Of a stretch of DNA of 45,220 nt, positions 3,613-21,115 are shown piece by piece. Position numbers and translations under genes: made by a program. Position 1 is the stretch's first letter. Every line of letters begins with the position of its first letter. Location: the NCBI GenBank assembly GCA_034434655.1, contig DAOTYR010000147.1, positions 1 to 45,220 on the forward strand, written 5' to 3'. The notes below the pieces were generated by a model. That model saw nothing but the letters and a program-made list of their open reading frames with translations, was not told where the DNA came from and searched no databases. This DNA comes from Chloroflexaceae bacterium (GTDB lineage: Bacteria; Chloroflexota; Chloroflexia; Chloroflexales; Chloroflexaceae).

Positions 3613-4077
3613 TCACCCGTCAAAGGCGTGGATCTCGATCCGCAGATGGAAGACCTGCTCCTGGAGGACCGGTTCGAGGAGCATTGTGGTCAGGATCCGA
3701 GAGCGGAGGGGACGAGGCGAATGGAAGAGATGGGTGCGACAGCGGGTATCGCTCGCGCCGAAGCCGGGCACCGGCGCGCTCAGCGCCGGAAGGGCGGCCA
3801 GGGCGCTGCACCAGCGAGCCTCGAAGCGCTCGGGGCCGCCGACGGTCCAGGCTTCACGGAGGCGCGCCAGGGGGCGCAGGTAATCGATGTGCCAGTGGGG
3901 GCGCGGCTTCTCGACGCGGCGGTGATGCGCCAGGCGCGCCGGCAGCCCGCCCGCGCCGAAAGCGCTGCCCACGTAAAGGTAAAACCCGGGGTGAAAGTCA
4001 AACACGCCCAGTTTGCCGATCCGCACGCCGGGCGCCAGGCGATCCAGTTGCAGCACCAGAATATATGAGCCCTTCAC
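3613..4077 (-). CDS. DUF123 / GIY-YIG (Uri)-superfamily nuclease-like protein
   Basis: Only the 3' 465 nt of the 531-aa ORF look real. That part reads (V)KGSYILVLQLD...IGKLGVFDFHPGFYLYVGSAFG...RLAHHRR...PHWHIDYL, which is typical of DUF123. A GTG at 4075-4077 is preceded by AGGA 6 nt upstream. The rest of the ORF is antisense to purD. Confidence 0.6.
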   Translation of the reverse strand: MKGSYILVLQLDRLAPGVRIGKLGVFDFHPGFYLYVGSAFGAGGLPARLAHHRRVEKPRPHWHIDYLRPLARLREAWTVGGPERFEARWCSALAALPALSAPVPGFGASDTRCRTHLFHSPRPLRSRILTTMLLEPVLQEQVFHLRIEIHAFDG

Positions 4078-4388
4078 AGCGATTCCTGCTTGCGTCGGGG
4101 AGGCGGCGCATTGAACCAGACCGTTCCCGGCGCCGGATGATACCCCCACAGAGTAACCGGGTAGAGCGATCTGGTCAAGGCTGGCGCGAGCGGGGGGTGT
4201 GACGTAACGTCTTGCACGTTCTTCCACGCCCGACGGCTCAAGCCGCGGGCTACGGTCCTGCGAAGCCGGCCTGCGCCGGCTCGCGAGGCCACGCAGGCGG
4301 CCTTCACATCCATGGCCGACGGCTGCTTCAGCCCGACGGAGCGCTGTGCAAGATATTTCGTCACACCCACGAGCATGCCGGCCGGGTA

Positions 4389-4397
4389 TGTTATACT
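4389..4397 (+). promoter_or_regulatory. Candidate extended -10 box (TGtTATACT) for purD
   Basis: This is an AT-rich box in GC-rich DNA, 39 nt upstream of the purD ATG. The candidate tkt box has the same spacing. No clear -35 is visible. Confidence 0.35.
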
Positions 4398-4435
4398 TTC
4401 CCTGGCGGCATACCTTCAACCCTTTGCGACAGCAT

Positions 4436-5686
4436 ATGAACGTTCTGCTGATCGGCTCTGGCGGCCGCGAGCACGCCCTCGCATGGAAGATCGCCCAGTC
4501 GCGCCATTTTACCCGGCTCCTCAGCGTGCCCGGCAACACCGGCACCGGGCAGTACGGCCAGAATGTCCCCTTTCCGCTGAGCGATTTCGACGCGATTGTG
4601 GACCTGGCGCAGCGCGAGGCGATCGACCTGCTGGTCGTCGGGCCGGATAATCCGTTGGCCGATGGGATCGTTGATGTCTTCAAAGCGGCAGGCATTCCGG
4701 CATTCGGACCGACCGCCGCGGCGGCGCGCATCGAGAGCAGCAAGTCGTTCGCCAAGGAGATCATGGCGGCCAGGGGCGTGCCCACGGCTGAAGCGATGAT
4801 CTTCGACTCGCCGGTTGAAGCCGTGGCCTTCGTGCAACAGAGCGGGCGGCCCTGGGTGGTCAAGGCCGACGGGCTGGCCCTGGGCAAAGGCGTGGTGGTG
4901 CCCGATGACGTGGAAGGCACCCTGGCGGCAATCACGCGCCTGTCGGCCACCCGCGCCGGCAGACGCCTGCTGCTCGAAGAACGCCTCGAGGGGCGCGAAG
5001 TCTCGGTCCATGCCCTCTGTGACGGCGAACATCTGCTGGTGCTGCCCACGGCGCGCGACCATAAGCGTTTCGGCGAGGGCGACACCGGCCCCAACACCGG
5101 CGGCATGGGCGTGATCGCCCCCGTGGATGAAGTAACCCCCGCCGTGCTCGAGCAGATCGTCACCACCTGTATGCAACCGGTGGTGGACGAACTGGCCGCC
5201 CGCGGCACGCCCTTTCGGGGCCTGCTCTACGCCGGGGTCATCCTGACCCGCGAGGGGCCGAAGATCCTGGAGTTTAATGCGCGCTTCGGCGACCCGGAGG
5301 CGCAGGCGATCCTGCCTCTGCTCGACGGCGATGTGCTGGAAGTGTTCTACGACTGCGCCGTGGGCCAGTTGCATCCCGAAAAGCTCCGCAAACGCAAGGG
5401 CTATGCCGTCTGCGTGGTGCTCTGCGCCCAGGGCTACCCCGGCAAGCCGCGCGTCGGCGACGCCATCCGCGGCGTCGAAGCCATAGACGACGAGCAGGTG
5501 CTGATCTTCCACGCCGGCACGGCCATCGGCCCCAACGGCCTCTGCACCGCCGGCGGGCGCGTCATCGGTGTGACCGGCCTTGGCCCGACCCTGGCGCGGG
5601 CGCGGGCACGGGCCTATGAGATCGCCGAGCGGGTGGCCTTTGAGGGCAAGTACTTCCGCCGGGACATCGGCAAGGAGCCTGGGTGA
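4436..5686 (+). CDS. purD: Phosphoribosylamine--glycine ligase
   Basis: The N-terminus is MNVLLIGSGGREHALAWKIAQS. An ATP-grasp core is present and the C-terminus reads GGRVIGVTG. The start is the ATG at 4436; the ORF track begins upstream at 4346. Confidence 0.93.
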   Translation: MNVLLIGSGGREHALAWKIAQSRHFTRLLSVPGNTGTGQYGQNVPFPLSDFDAIVDLAQREAIDLLVVGPDNPLADGIVDVFKAAGIPAFGPTAAAARIESSKSFAKEIMAARGVPTAEAMIFDSPVEAVAFVQQSGRPWVVKADGLALGKGVVVPDDVEGTLAAITRLSATRAGRRLLLEERLEGREVSVHALCDGEHLLVLPTARDHKRFGEGDTGPNTGGMGVIAPVDEVTPAVLEQIVTTCMQPVVDELAARGTPFRGLLYAGVILTREGPKILEFNARFGDPEAQAILPLLDGDVLEVFYDCAVGQLHPEKLRKRKGYAVCVVLCAQGYPGKPRVGDAIRGVEAIDDEQVLIFHAGTAIGPNGLCTAGGRVIGVTGLGPTLARARARAYEIAERVAFEGKYFRRDIGKEPG

Positions 5687-7154: not shown

Positions 7155-7288
7155 GCGGGGGGTTAAGGTGAGGATTGATTTCAGTAGCGCCGATTGGATT
7201 CAGTCGTGACAGATTAGACGCATAAGCGCGCCGACTTAAGGATGCGGTAACAGTTGTCTATTAAGATTTGTGTACAGTAGAGCCAGGC

Positions 7289-8251
7289 ATGCCAGATATC
7301 CGGTGGAAACGTATGGCACTGCTCAGTTCCAGCACAATCACCTTCAGCGGACACGAGACGTTTGTCCTGCGGAGTAACTGGCTCAAGAAAGCATACGACT
7401 TACTTCAGGACCAGCCCGACCTGTTTGCGCGCGAGGATTGCTTTGCGCGCCTCGGGGTGGGCAAAAATATGGCTCAGTCAATTCGCTTCTGGGGGCGTGT
7501 GTGCGGCGTATTCGAGCGGACTGAAGACAGCAAGGGTCATCGGGCAACCTGGCTTGGTCAGGCTCTCCTGGATGACCATAACGGTTGGGATCCGTTTCTT
7601 GTGACGCCAACCAGCCACTGGTTGCTGCATTGGCAGATCGTGAGACGACCAGAGGTAGCTTTTACCTGGTACTTTACCTTTAATTTGTTACGTCGTGGTG
7701 AATTTACCATCCCAAGCTTAGCTCAACAGATCCTCACGTTCGTTGCCCAGTATGGTGGCAAAGCGCCCTCGGATGCCACGCTCAGTCGCGATATTGACTG
7801 TATGCTGCGCTGCTACGTGCAACCTGATGCAATCCATCTCAAGACTGCGGTCGAAGATGCGCTCTATTGCCCTTTGCACACCACCGGTCTCATTCAGTCT
7901 CTGCCTAACCAGCAAGCCTATTATCTGGTCAGCGGCACTCATCCAAATCTCTCCGATCACCTGGTGGCGCTGGCGTCATTCCACCAGGCCCGAATGCTCA
8001 AGCGGAAGACCGTGTCATTCGCTGAACTTGCCTACGGAGAACGTTCACCAGGCCGGATCTTCCGGCTCGACGAAGACGCGCTGCTTGCGCGTCTGTTGCG
8101 GCTGGAGCAGGTGACAGCGGGCCGCGCAGTCTACAATGAAAGCGCCGGCATCCGCCAGATCGCCTGGCGTAACCTGGATGAGGAAGAGCACGAGGTTGAT
8201 CGCGCTCTTCTGAAGGCTGCTTTTAACCAGGAACACGCCTATGCCGAATAA
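7289..8251 (+). CDS. sspB: DUF4007-family protein (SspB-like)
   Basis: The N-terminal signature ITFSGHETFVLRSNWLKKAYDLL fits my recollection of DUF4007 proteins. It is the first gene of the operon and overlaps the next gene by 11 nt. The start is uncertain among TTG 7268, ATG 7289 and ATG 7313. Confidence 0.55.
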   Translation: MPDIRWKRMALLSSSTITFSGHETFVLRSNWLKKAYDLLQDQPDLFAREDCFARLGVGKNMAQSIRFWGRVCGVFERTEDSKGHRATWLGQALLDDHNGWDPFLVTPTSHWLLHWQIVRRPEVAFTWYFTFNLLRRGEFTIPSLAQQILTFVAQYGGKAPSDATLSRDIDCMLRCYVQPDAIHLKTAVEDALYCPLHTTGLIQSLPNQQAYYLVSGTHPNLSDHLVALASFHQARMLKRKTVSFAELAYGERSPGRIFRLDEDALLARLLRLEQVTAGRAVYNESAGIRQIAWRNLDEEEHEVDRALLKAAFNQEHAYAE

Positions 8252-11200
8252 CAGCGCCATCAGGGTAGCACCACGATTCACCCGGTCGGTGCATATTGGC
8301 CGCGATTTCCGCGATCTGCGCTTCCACCTCGACGGCTACCAGGTGACGCCGCTGGTGCGCCAGACTGCTGGACAGATTCTGTCCGGTCTGGCTGCCGACG
8401 CCACCGAACGCGCCTTTTCCGTGATCGGTCCCTTTGGTGCTGGCAAATCGGCGTTCGGGCTGTTCCTGGCCCATTTTCTGCAACGACGCCCGGCAGGGCG
8501 GCGCAAGTTGCTCACTTCGCTAGGCATAACGATCCCCGATGCACACTTACCCCTCGATGCGCCCACGCTCCTGGCGGTGCGCGTGCCAGGCAATCACGCT
8601 CCGCTGCGCCATGCGCTGCTGCAGGCGCTCAATGAGGTTCTGGACAGAGAAACGCGCCGGTCGGAGATTGCTGCCCTGTGTCAAACCCTTGAGCGCGCCA
8701 GGCACGACCCAAACCTCGATCCGGTACGCACGGCAGACTATGTAGCCGAGGCTGCGCGTCTACTCCGCGCCCAGGGTCGCTTCGATGGCCTGCTGGTGGT
8801 GATTGACGAACTTGGCCAGTTTCTTGATTATGCGGCCCGCCAGAATGAGGAACGCGATCTGTTCGTCTTGCAGAGCCTGGCTGAGACAGCAACACGTAGT
8901 GGCGATACCCCCGTGCTCGTAGTGACCATTCTGCACCAGGCATTCGAGCGCTATACCATCCACGCCGGGCCTACCCGGCGCGCTGAGTGGGCGAAAGTGC
9001 AGGGGCGCTTCAAAGACTTGCCGTTTCAGGAACCGGCGGCTCAGATAGTACGCATGGTCGCCTCCGCCCTCCGGCCGGTGGGGCGCGATCCATACAAGTG
9101 CGCGCGCGAGGAATGGACCACACAACTTGCCACTCTTTCCGAAGATCTTGGCCTGCGTCCGGTCGAGATCAGTTCAGCAGAATGGCGAAGCCTGCTAGCC
9201 GACACGTATCCGATTCATCCCACAGTGCTGGTCGCCCTGCCCTCGCTGTTCCGCCAGTTAGCTCAGAATGAGCGTTCACTCTTCGCCTTCCTCCATACTG
9301 ACGAGCCATGGGCGCTGCGCGATGTAACTGCTGATGCTGTGACTACTGACAGCCTGCCGATCTACCGGCTTACCCATCTTTATGCCTATGTTGAGGCTAA
9401 CCTTGGGCCATTTCTGTTCGGGAAGGCCCGCGGACAGCGCTGGGCTGAACTAGCCGAGGCACGCGTAGCTCTCGCCAACAGTGATCCGCTCCACCTCGAT
9501 ACACTGACCGTCGTAGGCGTTCTGGGCGCCATCGAACGCGCCTCGGGGCTACGCGCGAGTCAGGCGCATGTCGCCTTCGCGCTTGCTGATACACCTGACG
9601 ACCAGGCCGTCACTGATGCCTTGCGTGCACTGAGTGAACGGCGCATCATAGTGTACCGGCGCTATCGCGACAGCTATATCATCTGGGAAGGCAGCGATCT
9701 CGACCTGGAGACCCTGACCCAGGAAGCCCGACGGATGATTAGCGAACGGATGGATCTTACCGCCCTGTTGCAGCAGCATGCCGACACCACTCCACGCATC
9801 GCCCGGCGACATAGTTACCGTACCGGAGCCACGCGGGTATTCGCGGTGCGGTATGTGGAGGCTACACGCCTCAGCGTAGATCTGGCTGCCAGGGAAGGCT
9901 ACGATGGCGAACTCCTCCATGTCGTCCCGGCTGACGAAGAAGAACTGCGCGCAGCAGAGCATTGGGCACGCGACCCGGCGCGCGCCGAAGAACCATGGCG
10001 GATAACTGTCCTGCCACGGCACCTCCACGATCTGCGAGATCTGCTGCTTGAGGTCGCGGCGCTGCGCAACCTGCTCGATGAGCGCGCAGAACTCGAACAC
10101 GACCGGCCAGCGCGTCGCGAGGTGGCCGGACGACTGCTTGAAGCTCAGCAATTCCTCGCCGATACAATTATTGAGACCTATGGACGCGGGCGCTGGTTCT
10201 ATGCGGGTCAGCCCTACCACCCTCAGAGCGCCCGTCAGATTGACGATCTCCTTTCCAGGGCCGCGGATGCTACCTACCCTCACACTCCGCTGGTGTGGAA
10301 CGAGTTGATTGTTCGTCGCCAACTCACCTCAGCAGCGACCAAGGCGCGGCGCAACCTGGTTGAAGCGATGCTGAGCCGTGGCGCCGAGCCGCTCCTGGGA
10401 ATGACGGGCTACCCACCCGAACGGGCAATCTACGAGAGTGTTCTGCGTATGGGTGGATTACACCGCCGGGATGTGAATGGGACGTGGCGCATCGGCCCGC
10501 CGCCGCCGGAAGATCCGTTACGTCTGGGTCCGGTCTGGCAGGCGATGGAACGGCTTCTCGACACTGGGCGATCCGAACCTCACCCCATCGCGCACCTGTT
10601 TGCGCACATAGAAAGCCCGCCCTACGGCGTGAAAGCCGGATTGGCGCCGCTGCTCTTCGTGGCATTCTACGTAGCCCGTGCTGGCGAAATCAGCATTTAT
10701 GAACGTGGCACATATGTCCCGATGCCAGACATCGCAGTCTTCGAGCGGCTGATGACACGACCTGAACAGTTCAGCGTAAGCCTGTGCCGAGCCGAAGGGG
10801 CGCGCTGGCAGGTGTATGAACGACTCGCCCGCGCTCTAGCGCCCCAGGCTCTCACCCAGCCGTCACAGCCTGCCTTACTGGCCGTAACTCTGCCCCTGCT
10901 GCGCTTCATCAACCAACTGCCAGCGTACAGCAAGCAGACCAGACGCCTGAGCTTGCGGGCGCAGGCAGTTCGTCAGGCGCTCCGAGAAGCTCGCGCACCT
11001 GACGAACTGCTCTTCGAGCGATTACCAGGCGCATGTGACCTACCCTCGTTCCGCGCCGATGATGACGAAGGCACCCTATGGGTCGAACCTTTCGTCGCCG
11101 CCTTGCGTGAGGCCTTGCAAGAGTTACAAGGCGCCTACGCACGCTTGATTGAAACCGTTGCTACGCGCATTAGCGCAGCCTTCGGTTTACCATCAACCGG

Positions 11201-11678
11201 CGCGTCTGGCTACGAGGAACTGAAAAGGCGTTATGCGGCATTTGCCACCGCCGTAGCCGATCCGCAGATTCGCGCTATAGGCATGCGCCTGGAAACCGCC
11301 GATCCTGGAGATCAAGCCTGGATCGTGAGCCTAGCCACACTGGTGGCAAAACGTTCTCCAGAAACATGGAGCGATGCAGATCTCCCGGGGTTCGAGGCTG
11401 CCATAGCTGATCTGGGGCAACGCTTTCGGGCAGCCGAAGAACTGGCGCTCGTCACGCACACTGCCTCGCCTGACACACCGCTGGTGCGGGTCGGCTTAAG
11501 GAATGGACGCGGTGAAATCAGCCGGGTCGTGTATGCCGGTCTGACGGACCCGGCGGTGGAGCGCTTGCGGGCGGATCTCCGCGCATCCCTGGAGCGCCAT
11601 GCCGATCTCACAACTGATCAGCATGTTGCCGCTCTGACCGACCTGTTGCATGAAATCTTGACCGTCATGGAGAGCTAG
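8241..11678 (+). CDS. sspC: Large (1145-aa) P-loop NTPase (SspC-like)
   Basis: Walker A GPFGAGKS lies at 8427-8450. Walker B-like GLLVVIDELGQFLDY is followed by VLVVTILHQAF. Its position between the DUF4007 gene and the PAPS-reductase-like gene supports the call. Confidence 0.55.
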   Translation: MPNNSAIRVAPRFTRSVHIGRDFRDLRFHLDGYQVTPLVRQTAGQILSGLAADATERAFSVIGPFGAGKSAFGLFLAHFLQRRPAGRRKLLTSLGITIPDAHLPLDAPTLLAVRVPGNHAPLRHALLQALNEVLDRETRRSEIAALCQTLERARHDPNLDPVRTADYVAEAARLLRAQGRFDGLLVVIDELGQFLDYAARQNEERDLFVLQSLAETATRSGDTPVLVVTILHQAFERYTIHAGPTRRAEWAKVQGRFKDLPFQEPAAQIVRMVASALRPVGRDPYKCAREEWTTQLATLSEDLGLRPVEISSAEWRSLLADTYPIHPTVLVALPSLFRQLAQNERSLFAFLHTDEPWALRDVTADAVTTDSLPIYRLTHLYAYVEANLGPFLFGKARGQRWAELAEARVALANSDPLHLDTLTVVGVLGAIERASGLRASQAHVAFALADTPDDQAVTDALRALSERRIIVYRRYRDSYIIWEGSDLDLETLTQEARRMISERMDLTALLQQHADTTPRIARRHSYRTGATRVFAVRYVEATRLSVDLAAREGYDGELLHVVPADEEELRAAEHWARDPARAEEPWRITVLPRHLHDLRDLLLEVAALRNLLDERAELEHDRPARREVAGRLLEAQQFLADTIIETYGRGRWFYAGQPYHPQSARQIDDLLSRAADATYPHTPLVWNELIVRRQLTSAATKARRNLVEAMLSRGAEPLLGMTGYPPERAIYESVLRMGGLHRRDVNGTWRIGPPPPEDPLRLGPVWQAMERLLDTGRSEPHPIAHLFAHIESPPYGVKAGLAPLLFVAFYVARAGEISIYERGTYVPMPDIAVFERLMTRPEQFSVSLCRAEGARWQVYERLARALAPQALTQPSQPALLAVTLPLLRFINQLPAYSKQTRRLSLRAQAVRQALREARAPDELLFERLPGACDLPSFRADDDEGTLWVEPFVAALREALQELQGAYARLIETVATRISAAFGLPSTGASGYEELKRRYAAFATAVADPQIRAIGMRLETADPGDQAWIVSLATLVAKRSPETWSDADLPGFEAAIADLGQRFRAAEELALVTHTASPDTPLVRVGLRNGRGEISRVVYAGLTDPAVERLRADLRASLERHADLTTDQHVAALTDLLHEILTVMES

Positions 11679-11724: not shown

Positions 11725-12558
11725 ATGCAAAAGCACGATGCCATTACACGCGCCTGGGCTGAACGACCGGGGCGGCATATCGTAAATCTGAGCGGCGGCA
11801 AAGACAGCACTGCCCTGGCGATTTTTCTGCGCGACAAGATCCCCCCACTAGAGTACGTCTTTTGCGACACCCATAAAGAACTTCCGGAAACCTATGAGTA
11901 CCTGGAGCAGCTAGAAGCCTACCTGCAACGGCCGATTACCAGATTGAACGCGCAGCGCGGGTTCGACCACTGGCTAGAGATCTACGGAGGCGTGTTGCCA
12001 TCGGCGCAGGTGCGCTGGTGTACGCGCAAGCTGAAGATCGAGCCATTCGAAGCCTATGTCGGCGATGACACGGTCTGGAGCTACATCGGCATCCGCGCCG
12101 ACGAACAACGCAGCGGCTACATTTCAACCAAGCCGAATGTGCATCCGGTCTTTCCTTTTAAAGAGTGTGGCATGGCGCTAAGCGACATCGAGGGAATCCT
12201 GGCGGAGAGCGGATTGGGATTGCCGAGGTACTATGAATGGCGCCAGCGCAGTGGCTGCTATTTTTGCTTTTACCAACGTAGCGGGGAATGGATCGGACTT
12301 AAGGAGCGACATCCAGACTTATTTGAACAGGCGAAACAATACGAGAGCGAACGGGGAGGGGAACACTTTTACTGGCGCCAGCGCGAAAGCCTGGCCGAAT
12401 TGGAGCGGCCCGAGCGTATCGCCCAGATCAAGGCCGAACACCGGGCGCGCCTGGAACGCGAGCGCGCTCGACGGCCTGATCGTCCGTTGATAGAGGCGCT
12501 TGGTGCAGCCCTTGATGCCGAAGACGATGCGCAAGGATGTGATATTTGTCATTTGTAA
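11725..12558 (+). CDS. sspD: Phosphoadenosine-phosphosulfate-reductase-family PP-loop ATP pyrophosphatase (SspD/DndC-like)
   Basis: The PP-loop NLSGGKDSTAL has SGGKDS at 11791-11808. RWCTRKLKIEPF is present. Cysteine pairs CYFC (12256-12267) and CDIC (12538-12549) are present. Confidence 0.75.
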   Translation: MQKHDAITRAWAERPGRHIVNLSGGKDSTALAIFLRDKIPPLEYVFCDTHKELPETYEYLEQLEAYLQRPITRLNAQRGFDHWLEIYGGVLPSAQVRWCTRKLKIEPFEAYVGDDTVWSYIGIRADEQRSGYISTKPNVHPVFPFKECGMALSDIEGILAESGLGLPRYYEWRQRSGCYFCFYQRSGEWIGLKERHPDLFEQAKQYESERGGEHFYWRQRESLAELERPERIAQIKAEHRARLERERARRPDRPLIEALGAALDAEDDAQGCDICHL

Positions 12559-12573
12559 ACAGGCTCGACGCTT

Positions 12574-14361
12574 ATGTCAATTATCCGCAACCCCTTCGTC
12601 GACTACCTCAACAAGTACACTACTGCCTCACCAGACCACGAGGCCGCCTTTGACGAATTTGTCGCGCATACGCCGCCACCACCTGGCGGTCCATTGCGCT
12701 TTCAGACAAAGGTCGAGAAATTCCTCCGCATTCGCTTTGCCGAGTCCAGGCCACCTTCGATCATTCTTACCGGAAATGCCGGTGACGGCAAAACCTTTCT
12801 CTGTCGACAGATCATCCAAATATTTACCGCGAGGCATATTGATGACTGGGAAGAACTTGTCGAAAAACCACTTGAACGCCACGGAATTCGCCTGTATGTT
12901 ATCAAAGATCTCTCTGAGCTAAGTGAAGAGGAAGGCAGATCGGTACTCAACCGGCTAGAGCAAACCCTTAATTCGGAATCAAGTGATCGGTATCTGATTG
13001 CCGCTAATGAAGGACGCCTGCGAGATTTGCTGACTCGCGTCCAAACACCAAAACTTACCGAGTCAATCAAAACTCAACTTCAATATGGCATAGAATCAGG
13101 CTCCACGTCGCTGGTAGTAATCGACCTGACCAAAGTGACGACGTCGGCATTCGTCCCCGAGACATTACGCTGGATGACCAGCAATATTCACTGGCAAGTC
13201 TGTACCGATTGCCCCATTATTGAGAGGTGCCCGTTACACTACAATGTGCGTACTCTTCGCGATGAACGGGTTGTCAGACGGGTGCAGTTCCTCTATGATC
13301 TGCTAGAGCATCTTGACATCCACGTAACAGTGCGCGACATGCTGATTCACCTGGCATTTACACTGACCGGGAATCAGAGTTGTCCTGAATTGCAGCGACT
13401 CGACGCCGAAGATGCCGATCGTCATCATCTCGTGTATTACGAGAACATCTGGGGCGGATCTGAAAACAGTCCCTTTCGTCGCAAGGCAAGTGTCGTGCAA
13501 CATCTGGATCGGTTACAAATTGGGAAGCATTCCATCTTTGAGATCGATGACTTCATTATCAATGGAGGCGATCATCCTGATCAGACAATAGTTCATGCTC
13601 AACTCTTTACTCCAGCCGTCGATCTCGATTTCAAACGCTTTGAACAAGAACGTCGGGCATACATCGAAGGCGGCGCGGAAAAACAGACGGGTGAAGAAAC
13701 TCAGGCTTTTTTAGAGTGGTTGCCGCACTGTCGGCGCAAGTTATTTTTCGAGTCGCCCGATGAACAGCAGGCTAATGAATTAATCACTTTTCGCTACCTC
13801 AACACCTACCGGCAGTTGCTCACCAACAAGCACAAACCTACCGATAGTATACGCCATCGCCTGATACTAGGACTGAATCGCGCCTTTGCGCGGCTCTACC
13901 TTACTTTCGATGATATTCTCTACGTCACTAGTCAGTACCTGCACAGCGCTGAACAACCCCGGCCGTTGGTGCGACTAGAAATCCCTGCTAATGGGATCGG
14001 CCTTTCGATTGATGATCGCGAAGAACAAGCATTTGATCGGCGCTGGGCCGATCTCTATATACATTTTAGCCCACCGCCAGAATTGCACCTGCGTTGGACA
14101 AAAGACGCGCTGAAACCGCAGCGATGGCGTCTTAATCTACTGGTCTTTGAATATCTCTTGCGACTGGCTGACGGCGGGACATTCAACGTGCTCGCTGACG
14201 AGTGCGAACTAAGCATACGCAGCCTGAAAGATCGCTTACTCAGTGAATTCGCCCATGAAACGACAAACACGCGCATCAGATTCTTTGTTGCTGAGCAGCA
14301 ACAGTACGTTCTAAAGACCATCTATCTTGACGAGAAAGGGATTATCCGCGCAGGAGGTTAG
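12574..14361 (+). CDS. sspF: 595-aa P-loop protein (DptF/DndF/SspF-like restriction component)
   Basis: Walker A GNAGDGKT lies at 12772-12795. LYVIKDLSELS is Walker-B-like. Size and position match the first gene of F-G-H trios. The start is 15 nt after the sspD-like stop. Confidence 0.5.
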   Translation: MSIIRNPFVDYLNKYTTASPDHEAAFDEFVAHTPPPPGGPLRFQTKVEKFLRIRFAESRPPSIILTGNAGDGKTFLCRQIIQIFTARHIDDWEELVEKPLERHGIRLYVIKDLSELSEEEGRSVLNRLEQTLNSESSDRYLIAANEGRLRDLLTRVQTPKLTESIKTQLQYGIESGSTSLVVIDLTKVTTSAFVPETLRWMTSNIHWQVCTDCPIIERCPLHYNVRTLRDERVVRRVQFLYDLLEHLDIHVTVRDMLIHLAFTLTGNQSCPELQRLDAEDADRHHLVYYENIWGGSENSPFRRKASVVQHLDRLQIGKHSIFEIDDFIINGGDHPDQTIVHAQLFTPAVDLDFKRFEQERRAYIEGGAEKQTGEETQAFLEWLPHCRRKLFFESPDEQQANELITFRYLNTYRQLLTNKHKPTDSIRHRLILGLNRAFARLYLTFDDILYVTSQYLHSAEQPRPLVRLEIPANGIGLSIDDREEQAFDRRWADLYIHFSPPPELHLRWTKDALKPQRWRLNLLVFEYLLRLADGGTFNVLADECELSIRSLKDRLLSEFAHETTNTRIRFFVAEQQQYVLKTIYLDEKGIIRAGG

Positions 14362-14366
14362 CAAAG

Positions 14367-16010
14367 ATGACCTCACACTACGGCAACTACGATCACACCA
14401 AGTCCCCCCTTGCCACATACATCTGGGGTCATCGTCTACGCACCGGACAGCACTGGATCGAATACATGGTTGAGTTTTTGAGTGTGATATCAGGGTTTGA
14501 CTACCAGCTTGGTCAAGGCCTTAAGGGTCACCCCAACGTTAAGGTGGAGTACCGTCTTCCCAAACGACTAGGCCTACGGCGCTTCATTTTCTACGATCAG
14601 CGCGAAAAGAATCGTAACCCCTACGATGACCATGCCGTTCAAGAACTCCACAAGAGGCTCAGTTCACGCGTCTGTGGAATAGACAGTCACTCTGACCAGA
14701 TCGCGATCGATCAGGTACGCTCGCTCCTGCGCTCTTTCTCGGTAGTCGAAGGCAATCGCTCATGGTATGCCAAAACTCTTTTTCCTGTACATGAAGAGTT
14801 TCTACTCTGGGAAGGACAGCGTAGCCGTTCAGCGAAACTCACCACGCCGCTTCTGACACCTGACCTTGATTTAAATGAACTGGACCCGGACAACCTGGAT
14901 CGCGGAATGGAGTTCACCACACGCAACTTCTTTGCGCGCGGCGGGGAGATCTACTACCTGATCCTCTCAGCCGGCACTGAGAAGCAGCCGGACTATCGCA
15001 TGTTCATTGGCAAACGACTACGGGAGTTGCTGACTGAGCACAATCGAATTCTTGGCCAGATTGCCAGTACCATTGATACGACCTGGCAACCACGCGACAA
15101 TGGTCATACGAATTCCGCTTTTATCACTGGCTCACTCGGCTGGATACCACAACGGGATTGCGCACTCTACCAGCAGGTTGCTGAGGACCTGGTAACATTC
15201 CTCCAGAATAATTTGGATTCGCTTGAGTGCCTCGAACTACTGGCCCATCTGATCGGATTTCATATCATTTGTTACATATATCACCACGCCAATCCACATA
15301 TTGATCGTCCAGCACTGATCGTTGACCTGCTAGGCGCGCATGACGGCGGCGTATTACGCAATCAATCAGCGGCTTCACTCCGTGAACAGGAAGATCGGCA
15401 ACTTCGTAGAGCGAAGGACTTCGTTACAGAGCGGGTTCGGGAATGGGCAACTGATCAATTAGAAGGACCAATCTTGCTGGACCACCTTGAGCAGGAAACT
15501 AAGAACTATTTTCAATTGGGCCAGACCAGGGCGAAAGCAGAATACAACAAGACCCTCAAAGAACTCGGCCAATCCTATCAGATAGAGAGGGATCGCGAGC
15601 GCCTGCTCAAAGCATATAGCGAAGGTTTGTTCAAGGCCCTGGAGGGCGAGCTACGCAAAAATTTCCTTGGAATCCATCGCAAAATCGGACAAGCGATCGG
15701 CTTGATCGCGCCTATCAAAGGCCCAAAACCTCGCTTTGTGCTTGGCGACACTCTGTTAAAAACCCTGGTAATGGCGAACCTCAAACCCGATGACACTTTA
15801 CCATTCGGTGAGTTTTTGGAACGGCTCTATGCGCGTTATGGAATCATCATTGGTCCTGGCGAAAGCCGCACTGCACAGGTAATGGAGCGTTTGCGGATCA
15901 ATGAAGAATATTTCTCTCGTAACCGCGATGCACTCCGCGAACGTATGCGTCGCGCGGGCCTGCTAATCGAGTACTCCGACACAACGGCAATCGTCCGACG
16001 AGTTCAATGA
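14367..16010 (+). CDS. sspG: 547-aa protein with no recognisable motif (DptG/DndG/SspG-like by position and size)
   Basis: The ORF starts 5 nt after the previous stop, and a GGAGG lies in the end of the upstream gene. It overlaps the next gene by 4 nt (ATGA). The assignment is by synteny only. Confidence 0.4.
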   Translation: MTSHYGNYDHTKSPLATYIWGHRLRTGQHWIEYMVEFLSVISGFDYQLGQGLKGHPNVKVEYRLPKRLGLRRFIFYDQREKNRNPYDDHAVQELHKRLSSRVCGIDSHSDQIAIDQVRSLLRSFSVVEGNRSWYAKTLFPVHEEFLLWEGQRSRSAKLTTPLLTPDLDLNELDPDNLDRGMEFTTRNFFARGGEIYYLILSAGTEKQPDYRMFIGKRLRELLTEHNRILGQIASTIDTTWQPRDNGHTNSAFITGSLGWIPQRDCALYQQVAEDLVTFLQNNLDSLECLELLAHLIGFHIICYIYHHANPHIDRPALIVDLLGAHDGGVLRNQSAASLREQEDRQLRRAKDFVTERVREWATDQLEGPILLDHLEQETKNYFQLGQTRAKAEYNKTLKELGQSYQIERDRERLLKAYSEGLFKALEGELRKNFLGIHRKIGQAIGLIAPIKGPKPRFVLGDTLLKTLVMANLKPDDTLPFGEFLERLYARYGIIIGPGESRTAQVMERLRINEEYFSRNRDALRERMRRAGLLIEYSDTTAIVRRVQ

Positions 16011-19000
16011 AGGAGTTTTGTAGGATGCGCAGTGATCAGATTATTGCCGATGCGCTCAAACGCTACCTTGAGGCTTGTCTGCGCGAGAATCAAGCGTCAC
16101 GAGCGTTTTTTCGGCTTTCCGGATTTGATCAACCCATCTACAAAGCCTTGCTGGATAATCTGGCCCGTCTGAATTGGCGCCTTGGCGATATGCAGCTCGA
16201 AGTGCGCAGTATTGCATCCATTTCCAGTCATGATGAACGGGTCATGGAGCGGCATCGATCCGCGACGTGGTATCGCAACCATCTTAAAGCCGGCTATGCT
16301 CTGGTGCTAATTCAGAATCGCCGATCTACAGATGCTCAGAGTCTCAAAGATTTGTACTCCGTGACTGAAGGCTCACTCACAAATGATGGTCTGGCACATT
16401 TGATTGCAGCAACATGTGTGAACTATCAATTGAAACCTGAAGATCGCAAACAACTCGAAACATTCATACGTCGGTTTGGGAAAAAACTCTTCAAACCACA
16501 ACTTCGCGACCTGACAGAGTTTCTCTATCATGTTGACAAGAGGCTTGCGGAGCAACCAACAGCCATAATGCCTGACGCCATTGCTCGCGCTTTGCCATAC
16601 CTGGGATTATTTCAGTGTCTGGATTTTGCACCACACCTCAACACCCTTCAGGGTGACCGAATGCTGCGGCAGTTGCACAACGCCGCACGAATCGGTAGCG
16701 AGGTATTTGATGAGAATAAACAGGAGACATATCTAAAACGGCTGGAAACGGCGCCACTTGAGGATGACAGTGCGCTGAATGGTTATAGTGCCGAGGAGAA
16801 ACGTGTTTTGCTCCAACAGTTTATTGAAGGCCAGTTCCGGAATGACCGAACAAACACGCTTCGTGTCCTCCAGATCGACTGGCGCGAGGTTCAACACATT
16901 ATTACGACAAAGACTCGCAGTTCGCAGGCACAGAAGTTCAAGGAAATTGCTGACGAGATCGAAGAAGCGTTTCCTCAAGACACGATATCTGACCGTAATC
17001 TGATTGAGTTGCTTACCTCTCTGCGTAATGAGCGTGAACCAGAGGCAGATCTAGTCGATCAAGTCGTCGAACAGATTGGCGATAGTCTGAGTAAGCAATT
17101 GCGCGGCAAACTGCGTCGTCTGGTGAAGACTCGCACGCGCAAACACAGCGATTTCCTGGTTGGCCTGACAGCACTGGCCATTGAATTGTTGCATCCTCGC
17201 CAGGATGAATTGCAACCAGGAACACGTATGCGGATTGAACTGGATGAACAGACGTTTGAAGATCAAGCAATTAAAATTTTTCATACTTTATTCGGTGGAA
17301 TTGAGAAGATATTTTCAGATATTGAATGGGATCTGAACTCCGTTTCAGAAATTCTATCAGGGTATGAAACTCGTGAAACCGGGGAAGATCATGAAAAAGA
17401 AGGCCAGAGTGAAGTACGATTTCGGGTAGGAATCCTGGATGCCGATGGCCAAGAACTTGCCAGAGCCGACCTGATCTGGCAGTACCGTTCTGACAGCCCG
17501 GCTACAGCAACCTACCGAATGCTCGAAGCTGAACGACAAACGCTGAAACATCTCAACAATAAGCGCCTCCGCATTCCGATCTTTAAACGCTGCCCACACA
17601 GCGAAGATATCAGTAATCTGGATCTCCATCGTCCGTTGAAATCGTTCGGAAACTGGTCCGATCAGCCAGAGGATCTACGAACGTTGCTGTCAGCTATGCC
17701 ATTGCAACGACTCAGACCGCAAGCGCCGAAGGCTCTCTTTGAGGCGCTAGATGGACTGGAAGAGGCCTGGGGACAGTTCGTGCAGACAGCGACAGATCAG
17801 GGGCTCATAGCCGCAGACATCAGTTCCTTGCTCGAAGCCTATGCCAATCTTCTTCACGCGGCCATTAGTCACTTGCAAACCGGTCAGGAAGTCTCTTTCG
17901 GGCTTCGGGTATTGGTTCAGGCGTGGATGATCGGTGCCAGCGGATTTGAGGATTGGGCGATCATCCCTCTTCTACATCCGCTCAAACTGCTCTGGTGGCG
18001 CGAACGTGCTCGTCATTTCGCCGGTATTGTGCGACAGTTACTGACTCCAGCGCAGTCCGTTACCATCGTGGATGAACCAAGACTACAGCGCGAACTAGCC
18101 ATAACCTATGGATCTAGCCAGTTTCCACCTATTCTGGCCCTTCCGCCGAAGGAAGGAGCCCCTGTCGAGTGGTTTGTTCCTATCGAGGAAGTTGAAGGGT
18201 ATGAACTCTTCTTCCCCGCTCACAAACTCAATGCGTCTTTTGGGTCGTCTACGGCCAACCTTTTTGCCGATGAAACAGAAATCGCCACTCGACGCGCCGT
18301 TGAAGGTATTGCGGGTGTTATTCAGGACTATGTCGAAACCTATCCCTTTGTTCGTGATGGATTGGAACTAGTGCTACTCGAATGCCGGAATAGCATTTTT
18401 CCTGAACTTCTGATTGAACAAATAACAAAATCCGACACTGCAGAATCCATACGCACTTCACTACTGGTACATACGTCTGATCGCGGGGCACCGATCTTTC
18501 AGCGGCTTAGTGAGTGGGCAGCGAATCACCATGATAGCGCTGATCATCTATCCGGGGATTACTTCCCATCAATTAGTCTCAACGTGCAGCAGGGTCCGTT
18601 CGAGGAACTGCTACGCAAGAGCACAAACAAAGATCTAGTCATTCTGGCTGATGTCCTGGCCCAACGAGGGCAACGCATCATTCCCGAATTGTCTCAGTCT
18701 GAACCGAATGATATTCCGCTTGAAGGGTTCCTGCCCATTTACCGTGCGCAGCAGGAACCGTTCGAGCGCGGCGAACTCTATCGACGCCTGCGACTTACCC
18801 AGACTGATCAACCAGCACTAGTACGACACTTCCTACTCGCACAGTATGCAGCATTTCAGAAGCGCGGAGTTGATCCGCGAGCAACGGTAAATTTCTATCG
18901 TGAGACGAGCCTGGACGATTGGAAAAACGATCTCAAGAAACTTCATCACCATTTCAACTGGGTTATTTGCTACGATCCTGCAATTGACCGTTTCCTGTTG

Positions 19001-21115
19001 CAAGCGACGTTACCAGACACAGTACAGGTTATCCGCTATTCACTGGGGCTCGGCGAGAAACGTCAGCATAATCTTACCGTTTCTTCGTCACATAAACCAC
19101 AGATTATCGTACAGCGACGATTAGCTTCACGCCTGAAACAGATGCTTCCCGCTGCTGATCGCATATTGCTTGACCAGATTGCCGGCCAGTTGATCGAACA
19201 GGCCAAGCAGATCTCGGGAGATATTGTGCTACGCGCGGCGGGACCAGGCGCGTTCCTCAACGAAATGATCGGCATTGTCGCGGCAAAGTTTGAAACTGAA
19301 CGCCGGCTCGAAACACGTTATCCCAACGCTCTTAGAACCTGGATCCTACTTGACGACTTTGAACACTGGTTTCACGGTAAATTCCCCGACCTGCTATGCG
19401 TGGTCATTGATCGAAGCATGAATAACGCTCTTAAATTACATTTAGAGATCGTTGAAGCTAAGTGCGTGAGTCAGCATGCCTTCAATACTGAAACCGTTGA
19501 TGCCGAAGAACAGGCCCGTCGCGGCGCCGGTCGGTTGGTGGCAGCTTTTGCGCCCGGCGCACATCACCTTGATGCCACCTTTTGGTACGATCAGTTGTAC
19601 CGAGCCATCGCCGGAAACCTCGTTGTGGAATACGAACAGCAATCCTTGTGGGAGCTTTTTCGCGAACGCTTTCAAAACGGCGATTTTGAACGGACGATCA
19701 GCGCGCATGCCTGGACGTTCTGCTATGATGGGCAGGCGGGTATTGAGAAAGGTCCAGAGGAGACACAGACGAGTCGGCCTGTGCCTGATGCGCCCGGTGT
19801 GCCTTTATACACACATCGGTATGGACGCAAAGAGTTGTGCCAGATCCTGCGTGAACTCGTTGAGCATTCGGAAGGCCTTACGCCAACAAATGCCTGGATG
19901 CCCGCACAGGATATCGTCGAAGTCACAACTGTTCAGTCAACCACAACGGATGCCATCGCTTCCCCTGTCACCCTTGGACCCGTATCGTCAGATCTCTCAA
20001 CTGATGAACAAAACTGGTTAGATCTTATGGCTCGCAATCTCGAGAAGGCTTTACGCCACCGGGGGGTGCGCGTGCTGCGCATTAATCCAACTGATGCCGA
20101 TGTGGGGCCAAGCATTGTGCGTTTCAAGGTCCGACTTGGTCACGATGAGACTCTCCGAAAAGTTCAAAGCGTAGCCACGGATCTGGCACGGGATCTTGCG
20201 CTTGAAAAAACGCCGCTGATAGCTAATGTACCTGGCACGCAATTTGTTGGGATTGATTTGCCACGTCCACAACCAACGATCGTCGCTCTGGAACCACTGT
20301 TGGAGCAATTACCTTTACCAGCACCGGCTGAATTACCGATCATAGTTGGAATCACGCCTGATGGAACCGTGGTGAAAGATGATCTTTCTGAATTTCCTCA
20401 CTTGCTGGTTGCTGGAGTTACGAATTCTGGCAAATCTGTGTTTTTACGGAATCTGCTTCTCTGTCTCATAAAGCGATATGCTCCGAAACATCTTGAACTC
20501 CTGATCATCGATCCAAAACACACCGATTTTACTTTCTTCAACCAACTGCCGTATCTGCGTGGGGGCAAGGTGATAGTAGACCCAGGTGAGGCCAGAGAGG
20601 CGCTGCTGGAATTAGCGCGAAGTGAGATGAGACGTCGTCAACGTATCATGAGTGGACGAAGTCTAAAGGTCAAGCAGTTTAATCTTGACTATCCTGACGA
20701 AGCTCTGCCGCCAATTGTAGCCATGATTGACGAATACCATATGTTGATCAGCCAGATGGATCGAAAGGAACGAGAAACATTTGAGCAAGATCTTTATATC
20801 CTGGCGGCCGCTGCTCGTTCAGTGGGTATTCATCTAGTAGTTGCCACTCAGCGTCCGGGCGCTGACGTGATCACTCCAAATCTTAGAGCTAATCTAGGCG
20901 CTCAGATTGCATTCCGCGTCTCAACAGGCACCAATTCTCGAGTGGTTATTGACGAGAGCGGCGCTGAACATCTCATTGGTCGTGGCGATATGCTTTTTCG
21001 TCAGGCTTCCGGAGAAGTGATCCGTCTGCAAGCACCGTTTATGTCAGAAAAGGAACTGCTCGATTATCTTAAATCACTAATGCCAAAGCATCACAGAGAT
21101 GCCGCAAACTCGTGA
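16007..21115 (+). CDS. sspH: 1702-aa giant protein with a C-terminal FtsK/SpoIIIE-type ATPase motor (DptH/DndH/SspH-like)
   Basis: Walker A GVTNSGKS lies at 20414-20437 and Walker B MIDEYH has its DE at 20729-20734. HLVVATQRPGADVITPNLRANLGAQIAFRV and GRGDMLF are present. An alternative start is the ATG at 16025, which has AAGGAG 9 nt upstream. Confidence 0.6.
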   Translation: MKEFCRMRSDQIIADALKRYLEACLRENQASRAFFRLSGFDQPIYKALLDNLARLNWRLGDMQLEVRSIASISSHDERVMERHRSATWYRNHLKAGYALVLIQNRRSTDAQSLKDLYSVTEGSLTNDGLAHLIAATCVNYQLKPEDRKQLETFIRRFGKKLFKPQLRDLTEFLYHVDKRLAEQPTAIMPDAIARALPYLGLFQCLDFAPHLNTLQGDRMLRQLHNAARIGSEVFDENKQETYLKRLETAPLEDDSALNGYSAEEKRVLLQQFIEGQFRNDRTNTLRVLQIDWREVQHIITTKTRSSQAQKFKEIADEIEEAFPQDTISDRNLIELLTSLRNEREPEADLVDQVVEQIGDSLSKQLRGKLRRLVKTRTRKHSDFLVGLTALAIELLHPRQDELQPGTRMRIELDEQTFEDQAIKIFHTLFGGIEKIFSDIEWDLNSVSEILSGYETRETGEDHEKEGQSEVRFRVGILDADGQELARADLIWQYRSDSPATATYRMLEAERQTLKHLNNKRLRIPIFKRCPHSEDISNLDLHRPLKSFGNWSDQPEDLRTLLSAMPLQRLRPQAPKALFEALDGLEEAWGQFVQTATDQGLIAADISSLLEAYANLLHAAISHLQTGQEVSFGLRVLVQAWMIGASGFEDWAIIPLLHPLKLLWWRERARHFAGIVRQLLTPAQSVTIVDEPRLQRELAITYGSSQFPPILALPPKEGAPVEWFVPIEEVEGYELFFPAHKLNASFGSSTANLFADETEIATRRAVEGIAGVIQDYVETYPFVRDGLELVLLECRNSIFPELLIEQITKSDTAESIRTSLLVHTSDRGAPIFQRLSEWAANHHDSADHLSGDYFPSISLNVQQGPFEELLRKSTNKDLVILADVLAQRGQRIIPELSQSEPNDIPLEGFLPIYRAQQEPFERGELYRRLRLTQTDQPALVRHFLLAQYAAFQKRGVDPRATVNFYRETSLDDWKNDLKKLHHHFNWVICYDPAIDRFLLQATLPDTVQVIRYSLGLGEKRQHNLTVSSSHKPQIIVQRRLASRLKQMLPAADRILLDQIAGQLIEQAKQISGDIVLRAAGPGAFLNEMIGIVAAKFETERRLETRYPNALRTWILLDDFEHWFHGKFPDLLCVVIDRSMNNALKLHLEIVEAKCVSQHAFNTETVDAEEQARRGAGRLVAAFAPGAHHLDATFWYDQLYRAIAGNLVVEYEQQSLWELFRERFQNGDFERTISAHAWTFCYDGQAGIEKGPEETQTSRPVPDAPGVPLYTHRYGRKELCQILRELVEHSEGLTPTNAWMPAQDIVEVTTVQSTTTDAIASPVTLGPVSSDLSTDEQNWLDLMARNLEKALRHRGVRVLRINPTDADVGPSIVRFKVRLGHDETLRKVQSVATDLARDLALEKTPLIANVPGTQFVGIDLPRPQPTIVALEPLLEQLPLPAPAELPIIVGITPDGTVVKDDLSEFPHLLVAGVTNSGKSVFLRNLLLCLIKRYAPKHLELLIIDPKHTDFTFFNQLPYLRGGKVIVDPGEAREALLELARSEMRRRQRIMSGRSLKVKQFNLDYPDEALPPIVAMIDEYHMLISQMDRKERETFEQDLYILAAAARSVGIHLVVATQRPGADVITPNLRANLGAQIAFRVSTGTNSRVVIDESGAEHLIGRGDMLFRQASGEVIRLQAPFMSEKELLDYLKSLMPKHHRDAANS

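Follow-up and report, generated by a model that had tools for sequence, protein, structure and literature searches.

SspH of a Chloroflexaceae SspBCD-SspFGH phosphorothioate defence locus: a predicted PD-(D/E)xK nuclease domain joined to an FtsK-type motor

The SspBCD-SspFGH system of Vibrio anguillarum FF-93 is a phosphorothioate (PT) defence system that was expressed in E. coli (Wang et al. 2021, PMC8092258; parts of that paper are drawn on here). Each of sspF, sspG and sspH was needed for defence. SspFGH without SspBCD led to poor growth, filamentation and DNA damage (3′-OH) detected by terminal deoxynucleotidyl transferase dUTP nick end labelling (TUNEL), and SspFGH together with SspBCD blocked T4 DNA replication. 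In those parts of the paper only the FtsK-like C-terminus of SspH was recognised, a nuclease was not named, and the Ssp and Dnd restriction modules were said to lack significant sequence identity; the passages drawn on from reviews of 2024–2025 repeat the 2021 description of SspFGH. DndH has been dissected further: in the parts of Krishnan et al. 2024 (PMC10853773) used here, it comprises an inactive superfamily 2 (SF2) domain, a helix-turn-helix (HTH), beta-sandwiches, a target recognition domain, an inactive methyltransferase, a restriction endonuclease (REase) and a HerA/FtsK ATPase. The REase of DndH keeps all key catalytic residues, the HerA/FtsK ATPases are described as “captured” from different sources, and that paper refers to Wu et al. 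2022 (Nat Catal) on the REase and on nicking and translocase activity. Here we describe sspH in a 45,220-nucleotide stretch of DNA (the window: positions 1 to 45,220 of contig DAOTYR010000147.1, assembly GCA_034434655.1) from a Chloroflexaceae bacterium, and a nuclease domain predicted in its product.

sspH was the last of six genes lying in a row on one strand (sspB-C-D-F-G-H). Its product matched the PADLOC profile PDLC02804 over residues 169–1288 (E=0, 1248.6 bits) and also PDLC02806 over residues 7–1311 (E=1.9e-148). The locus encodes the SspBCD-SspFGH PT defence system described by Wang et al. 2021 (PMC8092258). A preliminary description of this DNA had reported an open reading frame (ORF) of 1702 codons and a candidate REase-fold nuclease fused to an FtsK-type translocase; it had not named the product as SspH, although it suggested comparison with DptH/DndH/SspH homologues. 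The ORF is real, and the fusion is now supported by conservation, predicted fold and profile homology to DndH-like proteins. We consider it likely that SspH has been correctly identified, combines a nuclease with a motor and serves the SspFGH restriction module as its large effector subunit. Residues are numbered throughout on the 1702-residue version starting at 16007. The gene and the predicted nuclease features, with counts from an alignment of 262 sequences, were as follows.

16007..21115, + strand: sspH, an ORF of 1702 residues without an internal stop.
19250..19876, + strand: predicted PD-(D/E)xK nuclease domain, residues 1082–1290, assigned by conservation, model and DndH-like homology.
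19352..19354, + strand: codon of D1116, in an LDD motif just after beta1, kept in 258/262.
19385..19390, + strand: codons of P1127 and D1128, the “PD” that opens beta2, D kept in 257/262 (the other five being gaps).
19454..19462, + strand: codons of E1150-A-K1152, the “(D/E)xK” on beta3, E kept in 259/262 and K in 258/262.
19511..19513, + strand: codon of Q1169, in the helix after beta3, kept in 258/262.

A first alignment was made of 120 close SspH homologues. The alignment of 262 sequences added to these 142 of the best 150 cluster representatives from an exhaustive HMMER search (508 matches at E<=0.001, 278 at <=1e-10 and 42 at <=1e-30), and identity within it reached down to about 25%. P1127 and D1128 were each present in all 120 close homologues, and D1116, D1128, E1150, K1152 and Q1169 were kept in 112–114 of the 115 most distant rows. 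Two tryptophans, W1121 and W1193, were kept in 256 and 249 of the 262 homologues, respectively. When conservation was scored in windows of 40 residues, residues 961–1200 were as conserved as the ATPase core, these two being the best-kept parts of SspH, and residues 1–960 were mostly much less so. The predicted nuclease site of SspH is under strong purifying selection. The alignments point to D1128 as the catalytic aspartate; D1116 and Q1169 are likewise invariant. Motif spacing, which the preliminary description had read as the sign of a nuclease, proved uninformative: the loose pattern D-x(10-30)-[DE]xK occurred six times in SspH and 6.3 ± 2.3 times in 200 shuffles. The stricter pattern PD-hh...hExK occurred once, against 0.008 expected.

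Residues 960–1320 were modelled by AlphaFold2 with 40 homologues (mean predicted local distance difference test score (pLDDT) 88.4, predicted template modelling score (pTM) 0.85). In the model a long helix (1082–1104) is followed by beta1 (1109–1114), D1116 opening a short helix, P1127-D1128 just ahead of beta2 (1129–1136), and beta3 (1142–1154) bearing E1150 and K1152; a long helix with Q1169 (1156–1180), two more helices and strands up to about residue 1290 complete the domain. As modelled, this order of elements is the layout of a PD-(D/E)xK core, for which alpha-beta-beta-beta-alpha-beta is characteristic. Structural matches to residues about 1045–1295 were nearly all PD-(D/E)xK nucleases, the best being HamA, PaqCI, McrC and MspJI with moderate Z scores (7.3 or less), so the predicted fold agrees with the REase-like core that had been proposed for this region. 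Matches of lower Z included NucS, Can2, R2 endonuclease, CdiA-CT toxins, Card1 and LmuA. Foldseek with the same model against the PDB returned no match at E<=0.001; its top rows were McrC (E=0.04), HamA, MspJI and FokI.

A relative of DndH in the phylum allowed a profile comparison. TIGR03237 gave one weak match across 201 genomes of the phylum (45 bits against a cut-off of 620) and no match in the window's own genome. The matching protein, of 1672 residues, was encoded in a three-gene, DndFGH-like cluster of another genome (L025:5605-15020). Its residues 809–1150 matched five PADLOC DndH models (E=1.9e-18 to 1e-9) and its C-terminus matched the SspH and mad8 models (FtsK motor); the neighbouring genes showed weak DndF and DndG/mad7 matches, and an HTH/RmrA-like gene lay upstream. 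From 32 collected relatives, 30 full-length sequences were used to build a DndH-like profile. Aligned by hhalign, SspH 742–1300 and the DndH-like region matched with Prob 97.5% and E=4.9e-12 over 298 columns (SspH 974–1285), and the nuclease part alone (SspH 1040–1300) matched with Prob 97.6% and E=4.5e-12; once the template columns were reversed, only Prob 0.3% and E=0.17 were left. D1116 was aligned with an invariant E (30/30), P-D1128 with an invariant D-D (30/30), E1150-x-K1152 with an invariant E-V-K (30/30), and Q1169 with Q (19/30) or E (11/30). These profiles argue that the nuclease region of SspH is homologous to that of the DndH-like proteins, a family that is itself a divergent relative of DndH. 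The methyltransferase-like part of SspH aligned weakly and without significance with the DndH-like region (Prob 7%, E=0.005), and pieces 1–130, 130–375, 375–540 and 540–741 gave Prob 0.1–0.8% against the DndH-like N-terminus.

Downstream of the nuclease domain lay a flexible linker and the motor, with the following features.

19880..19996, + strand: Thr/Ser/Pro-rich linker of low confidence, residues 1292–1330 (pLDDT 43–57 at model residues 331–361, conservation 0.22).
19997..20263, + strand: FtsK_alpha domain, residues 1331–1419 (PF17854, E=1.3e-10, 41.8 bits against a cut-off of 22.9).
20333..21049, + strand: FtsK/SpoIIIE motor, residues 1443–1681 (PF01580, E=3.6e-29).
20414-20437, + strand: Walker A GVTNSGKS, G1470–S1477, inside the FtsK motor.
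20729-20734, + strand: Walker B D1575-E1576, inside the FtsK motor.

PF01580 (FtsK_SpoIIIE) covered residues 1443–1618 with 102.2 bits against a cut-off of 24. With both Pfam domains above their cut-offs and Walker A and B intact, the FtsK/SpoIIIE C-terminus of the preliminary description was borne out. In an alignment of 41 sequences, 22 of them distant, G1470, G1475, K1476, D1575, E1576, R1604 and Q1615 (the last in the ATQRP motif of the motor) were each kept in at least 95%. The SspH family profile matched the FtsK crystal structure 2ius_A (E=4.2e-76), and the motor also matched PADLOC mad8 (E=8.7e-23). A profile search of PDB sequences returned FtsK, HerA, EccC and DptH-ATPase matches only, all within the motor, except for a marginal DEPDC5 match (E=0.006) at N-terminal profile positions 81–156.

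Several results weigh against a nuclease in SspH. No Pfam family was found over the nuclease region at E<=1 in 28 proteins (the nuclease domain alone, 8 fragments and 19 distant full-length SspH), and the DndH, DptH and TIGR03237 profiles of NCBIfam and PADLOC gave no match to SspH at E<=0.01. The DndH-like family used for comparison itself falls below the NCBIfam DptH cut-off (the 45 against 620 bits given above). In the model D1116 stands after beta1, whereas many PD-(D/E)xK enzymes put the first acidic residue in the first helix, and the active site was read from the order of elements. The nuclease activity of SspH is a prediction. A further point comes from the published system: T4 DNA gave no discrete degradation products on the Southern blots in the parts of the 2021 paper used here (PMC8092258). 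This absence is more in keeping with nicking or scattered cuts than with site-specific double-strand cleavage.

In the mechanism that we propose, the FtsK motor of SspH would form a ring on double-stranded DNA and pump DNA with ATP, and the linker-tethered PD-(D/E)xK domains would nick, or make scattered cuts in, DNA lacking the host PT marks. SspF, SspG and the N-terminal and methyltransferase-like parts of SspH, taken as non-catalytic, would supply target sensing and licensing. Whether translocation and cutting are coupled in this detailed way is close to an even question. PD-(D/E)xK nucleases leave 3′-OH ends, and such ends would fit the TUNEL result described above. Among the three restriction proteins, SspH was the only one with a recognisable nuclease site.

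It is conceivable that the REase-like domain of SspH is non-catalytic, serving for DNA binding or as a scaffold, and that the damage comes from SspG or, indirectly, from the motor. SspG is a member of the MAD7 family (NCBIfam MADS7, E=1.3e-7, residues 361–538; Atlas clusters with PF26611), and its residues D274, H437, R456, D461, N519 and D538 were kept in 12 orthologues. Invariant Asp and His residues in SspG count against SspH as the source of the damage, as does a 2026 paper, used here in part, that names a related MAD7-MAD8 pair an “ATPase-nuclease module” (PMC13662399). On these two grounds SspG may hold a second nuclease, or an alternative one. However, SspG matched no nuclease family in Pfam or PADLOC, its invariant residues included no recognisable nuclease motif, and its best predicted-structure match in the Atlas was a cluster labelled TIGR02678-family, not a nuclease. 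Inactive REases usually lose their catalytic residues, but in SspH the four canonical positions and Q1169 were kept in 257–259 of 262 homologues at identities down to about 25%, and the corresponding catalytic residues were invariant in the DndH-like family. We therefore judge a non-catalytic domain in SspH to be unlikely.

Upstream of the predicted nuclease three regions were distinguished.

16007..18229, + strand: fast-evolving N-terminal region, residues 1–741, no family assigned.
18230..18946, + strand: class I S-adenosylmethionine (SAM)-methyltransferase (Rossmann) fold, probably inactive, residues about 742–980, from a structural search of the model.
18926..19096, + strand: highly conserved beta-alpha-beta-beta unit, residues 974–1030 (FNWVxCYD...DR...GLG...NLTVSS).

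An AlphaFold2 model of residues 1–980 (pLDDT 87.8, pTM 0.68) was the source of the fold searches with residues 1–741. These residues comprised an alpha/beta unit (about 30–120), helical arrays and a beta-rich unit (about 376–530); their conservation was 0.25–0.37 per 40-residue window, and R90 was the sole conserved polar residue. In a wide structural search with the model, the matches were filled by the methyltransferase-like domain. Foldseek against the PDB gave no match at E<=0.001 for the 1–980 model, and the ESM Atlas gave no usable match for SspH residues 1–960. Foldseek rows for clamp-loader proteins (RFC1, E=3.9e-3; delta subunit, E=8.9e-3) and dynein AAA were too weak for an assignment of the N-terminal region. 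About 1100 residues had been left unassigned in the preliminary description; this still holds for family membership of residues 1–741, but residues about 742–980 are now assigned a methyltransferase-like fold. The C-terminal boundary of this fold is uncertain because the models were cut at residues 960 and 980. Residues 974–1030, with invariant H980, W985, D990 and D994, either close the methyltransferase-like fold or form an Alba/IF3-C-like unit of their own.

A methyltransferase-like fold beside a nuclease raises the possibility that SspH is an active single-chain restriction-modification enzyme, of Type IIG or ISP kind, which methylates DNA. The SAM-binding motifs argue otherwise. The loop after beta1 reads ECRNSIFPE (family consensus NCRNAALPG) and lacks the glycine-rich SAM loop of motif I, GxGxG; the end of beta2 has no conserved acidic residue; and after beta4 stands ADVLA, motif IV, (D/N)PP(Y/F), being absent from SspH and from the family consensus. 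Methyltransferase families of Pfam gave no match in SspH, and protection in the published system, in the parts used here, is by SspBCD phosphorothioation (PMC8092258). An active methylating enzyme is thus very improbable. The domain has lost its SAM-binding motifs and is probably inactive. The preliminary description had suggested that the first ~1100 residues might sense modification or bind partners; the modelled fold bears on this in part, being compatible with a possible role in reading DNA or its modification.

The catalytic residues named in the preliminary description differed from those given here: D1135, with E1147 or E1150, and K1152. The string quoted there, DLLCVVIDRSMNNALKLHLEIVEAK, is present and starts at residue 1128, and the codons were given correctly (D1135 at 19409-19411, E1147 at 19445-19447, E1150 at 19454-19456 and K1152 at 19460-19462). 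Two of the four, E1150 (259/262) and K1152 (258/262), are indeed invariant among homologues. The column of D1135, at the end of beta2, held P 53, S 17, G 11, T 11 and E 6 in the 120 close homologues, and P 59, S 38, E 22 and T 21 in all 262; that of E1147 held E in 114/262, and mostly Q, T, V, H or I among the distant homologues. For want of conservation D1135 and E1147 fail as catalytic residues. It is D1128 that is the invariant aspartate, and it follows an invariant proline in the canonical “PD” position at the start of beta2, and the site as named there has hardly any probability left.

No more credible is a housekeeping or conjugative DNA pump of FtsK/TraB type, for which the strong FtsK and weak EssC/EccC/TraB matches of SspH speak, but against which stand the NCBIfam scores (157.5 bits against a cut-off of 1566 for the FtsK equivalog NF007615; 34 against 800 for TraB), a Pfam scan of SspH with only FtsK_alpha and FtsK_SpoIIIE and no membrane or gamma domain family, and the fixed place of sspH at the end of ssp operons with a patchy distribution (14/400 genomes).

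The other genes of the ssp locus were as follows.

7268..8251, + strand: sspB, DUF4007 (Pfam and PADLOC).
8241..11678, + strand: sspC (PADLOC SspC, E=0).
11725..12558, + strand: sspD, 3′-phosphoadenosine 5′-phosphosulfate (PAPS)-reductase-like (Pfam and PADLOC).
12574..14361, + strand: sspF, P-loop NTPase with Walker A at G67–T74 (PADLOC SspF, E=3e-235).
14367..16010, + strand: sspG, MAD7-family protein (PADLOC SspG, E=1.3e-47).

The stop codon of sspG overlaps the ATG of sspH (ATGA). An in-frame ATG at 16025 (M7), six codons inside sspH, has AAGGAG suitably spaced ahead of it and is for this reason perhaps the true start. The N-termini of SspH homologues also aligned better with M7, so the protein may have 1696 residues. 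Neither sspA, a gene of the SspABCD-SspFGH system of FF-93, nor a cysteine desulfurase was seen among the 22 ORFs of the window that were scanned. Flanking genes with Pfam matches were housekeeping genes (topoisomerase I, formyltransferase and a nickel-insertion protein, among others). Beside topoisomerase I, roughly 2 kb upstream of the ssp genes, was an ORF of 531 residues (3613-5208, − strand) with a C-terminal DUF123 domain (E=1.2e-23); its gene call is uncertain because it overlaps other long ORFs.

The SspH nuclease region, searched as a 361-residue query, found a match in 14 of 400 sampled genomes of the phylum (8 of 24 in the same family and one of four in the same genus, leaving aside the window's own genome). 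Such a patchy distribution is the pattern usual for defence islands. Eleven of the matching loci (L014-L024) were retrieved for comparison of gene order. The order SspD-F-G-H was kept in all 11, and SspB-C were recognisable upstream in 10. Identity to the window proteins was 56–82% for SspD, 35–65% for SspB and 29–62% for SspC, falling to 24–57% for SspF, 22–54% for SspG and 23–50% for SspH; the drop from SspD to SspH means that the restriction genes evolve faster than the modification genes. In one locus (L015:3687-8892, − strand) SspH was split into overlapping ORFs of 1370 and 449 residues, with the break between the nuclease part and the motor, perhaps by a frameshift, perhaps as a true division of the gene. 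The most distant locus (L024:494-5373, + strand) carried before sspD two ORFs, of 905 and 722 residues, that were not recognisable as SspB or SspC; the 905-residue product had a weak PADLOC match to a Type II REase (E=1.2e-6) and the 722-residue product had no match.

The motor varied within the family. A Pfam scan of 19 distant full-length SspH found FtsK_SpoIIIE in four and an ATPase of HerA/DUF87/TrwB type in 15. Among 85 full-length cluster representatives, classified with two phmmer queries, 48 had FtsK-type, 35 HerA-type and two unclassified motors. When a tree was built from the nuclease domain, HerA-type SspH grouped as one clade with support 1.0, from which it follows that the motor was exchanged once under a conserved nuclease core. 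A single exchange, as read from this tree, would be a simpler version of the motor “capture” described for DndH. Homologues of SspH are usually named “DNA translocase FtsK” or “hypothetical protein”, and named ones come from Roseiflexaceae, Kouleothrix and Oscillochloris. Entries of this kind, of roughly 1700 residues, would be better labelled as restriction effectors.

The SspFGH system, the SspH family and the “REase + HerA/FtsK” architecture of DndH were already known. What is new and useful is the predicted nuclease domain of SspH, an assignment that can be tested by mutation of D1116, D1128, E1150 and K1152. In our literature search a nuclease domain was assigned to SspH nowhere; the supplements of PMC10853773, which lay outside the search, may list SspFGH-type loci. 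Section 22 of that paper, in the part used here, describes unnamed neighbourhoods of “Orc/CDC6 + REase + HerA/FtsK (with FtsK-alpha)”, and these may include SspFGH, in which case the nuclease domain was perhaps covered there without the name SspH. SspFGH is a validated anti-phage system that damages DNA lacking PT, and the PD-(D/E)xK site supplies it with a candidate nuclease. The homology of its nuclease region to that of DndH-like proteins would also tie the Ssp and Dnd restriction modules together.

SspH can be compared with several known systems. The membership of SspG in the MAD7 family and the mad8 match of the SspH motor imply that the SspG-SspH pair shares a module with the methylation-associated MADS. 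The MAD8 profile, of 314 positions, covers the ATPase only and is without the N-terminal region, the methyltransferase-like domain and the nuclease domain of SspH; the text of the MADS preprint gives no domain names for MAD7 or MAD8.

Hachiman HamA and McrC, with 9–11% identity to SspH, are PD-(D/E)xK nucleases working with an ATP- or GTP-driven motor. Their motors are separate proteins, the SF2 helicase HamB and the AAA+ GTPase McrB, whereas in SspH nuclease and FtsK motor would share one chain. Type ISP and Type IIG enzymes (e.g. LlaGI, BpuSI) also join a PD-(D/E)xK nuclease and a methyltransferase-fold domain in one polypeptide, and Type ISP enzymes further include a double-stranded DNA translocase of SF2 type. 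SspH differs from them in a methyltransferase-like domain without SAM motifs and in a motor of the ring-forming FtsK type instead of SF2, and self-marking in Ssp is by phosphorothioation through separate proteins, unlike in Type ISP/IIG.

The SspH of V. anguillarum FF-93 agrees with that of the window in its place in the operon, after sspB-C-D-F-G, and in its FtsK-like C-terminus, as far as the parts of the 2021 paper used here go (PMC8092258), although the two proteins come from different phyla. SspH is paired with SspBCD, which makes single-strand PT marks (5′-CPSCA-3′ in FF-93, in the same parts of PMC8092258; this may not be the motif of the present organism).

DndH/DptH has SspF and SspG replaced by DndF and DndG as partners, and the N-terminal 740 residues of SspH lack detectable similarity to the DndH-like N-terminus (Prob <1%). 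A wider reading, which we offer as speculative and rather doubtful as a whole, is that a single ancient family of restriction effectors, which arose from single-chain restriction-modification enzymes and unites a methyltransferase relic, an REase and a captured ring motor, has SspH and DndH as its two branches. The PD-(D/E)xK site of SspH (D1116/D1128/E1150/K1152) would then be the sole DNA-damaging activity, and the dead methyltransferase fold would read whether the SspBCD target site bears PT and gate the nuclease during DNA pumping by the FtsK ring. What the two proteins share is a length of about 1700 residues and, as predicted for SspH, a C-terminal layout of methyltransferase-like fold, REase and HerA/FtsK motor, and in both the type of motor varies between clades, once only in the nuclease-domain tree of SspH.

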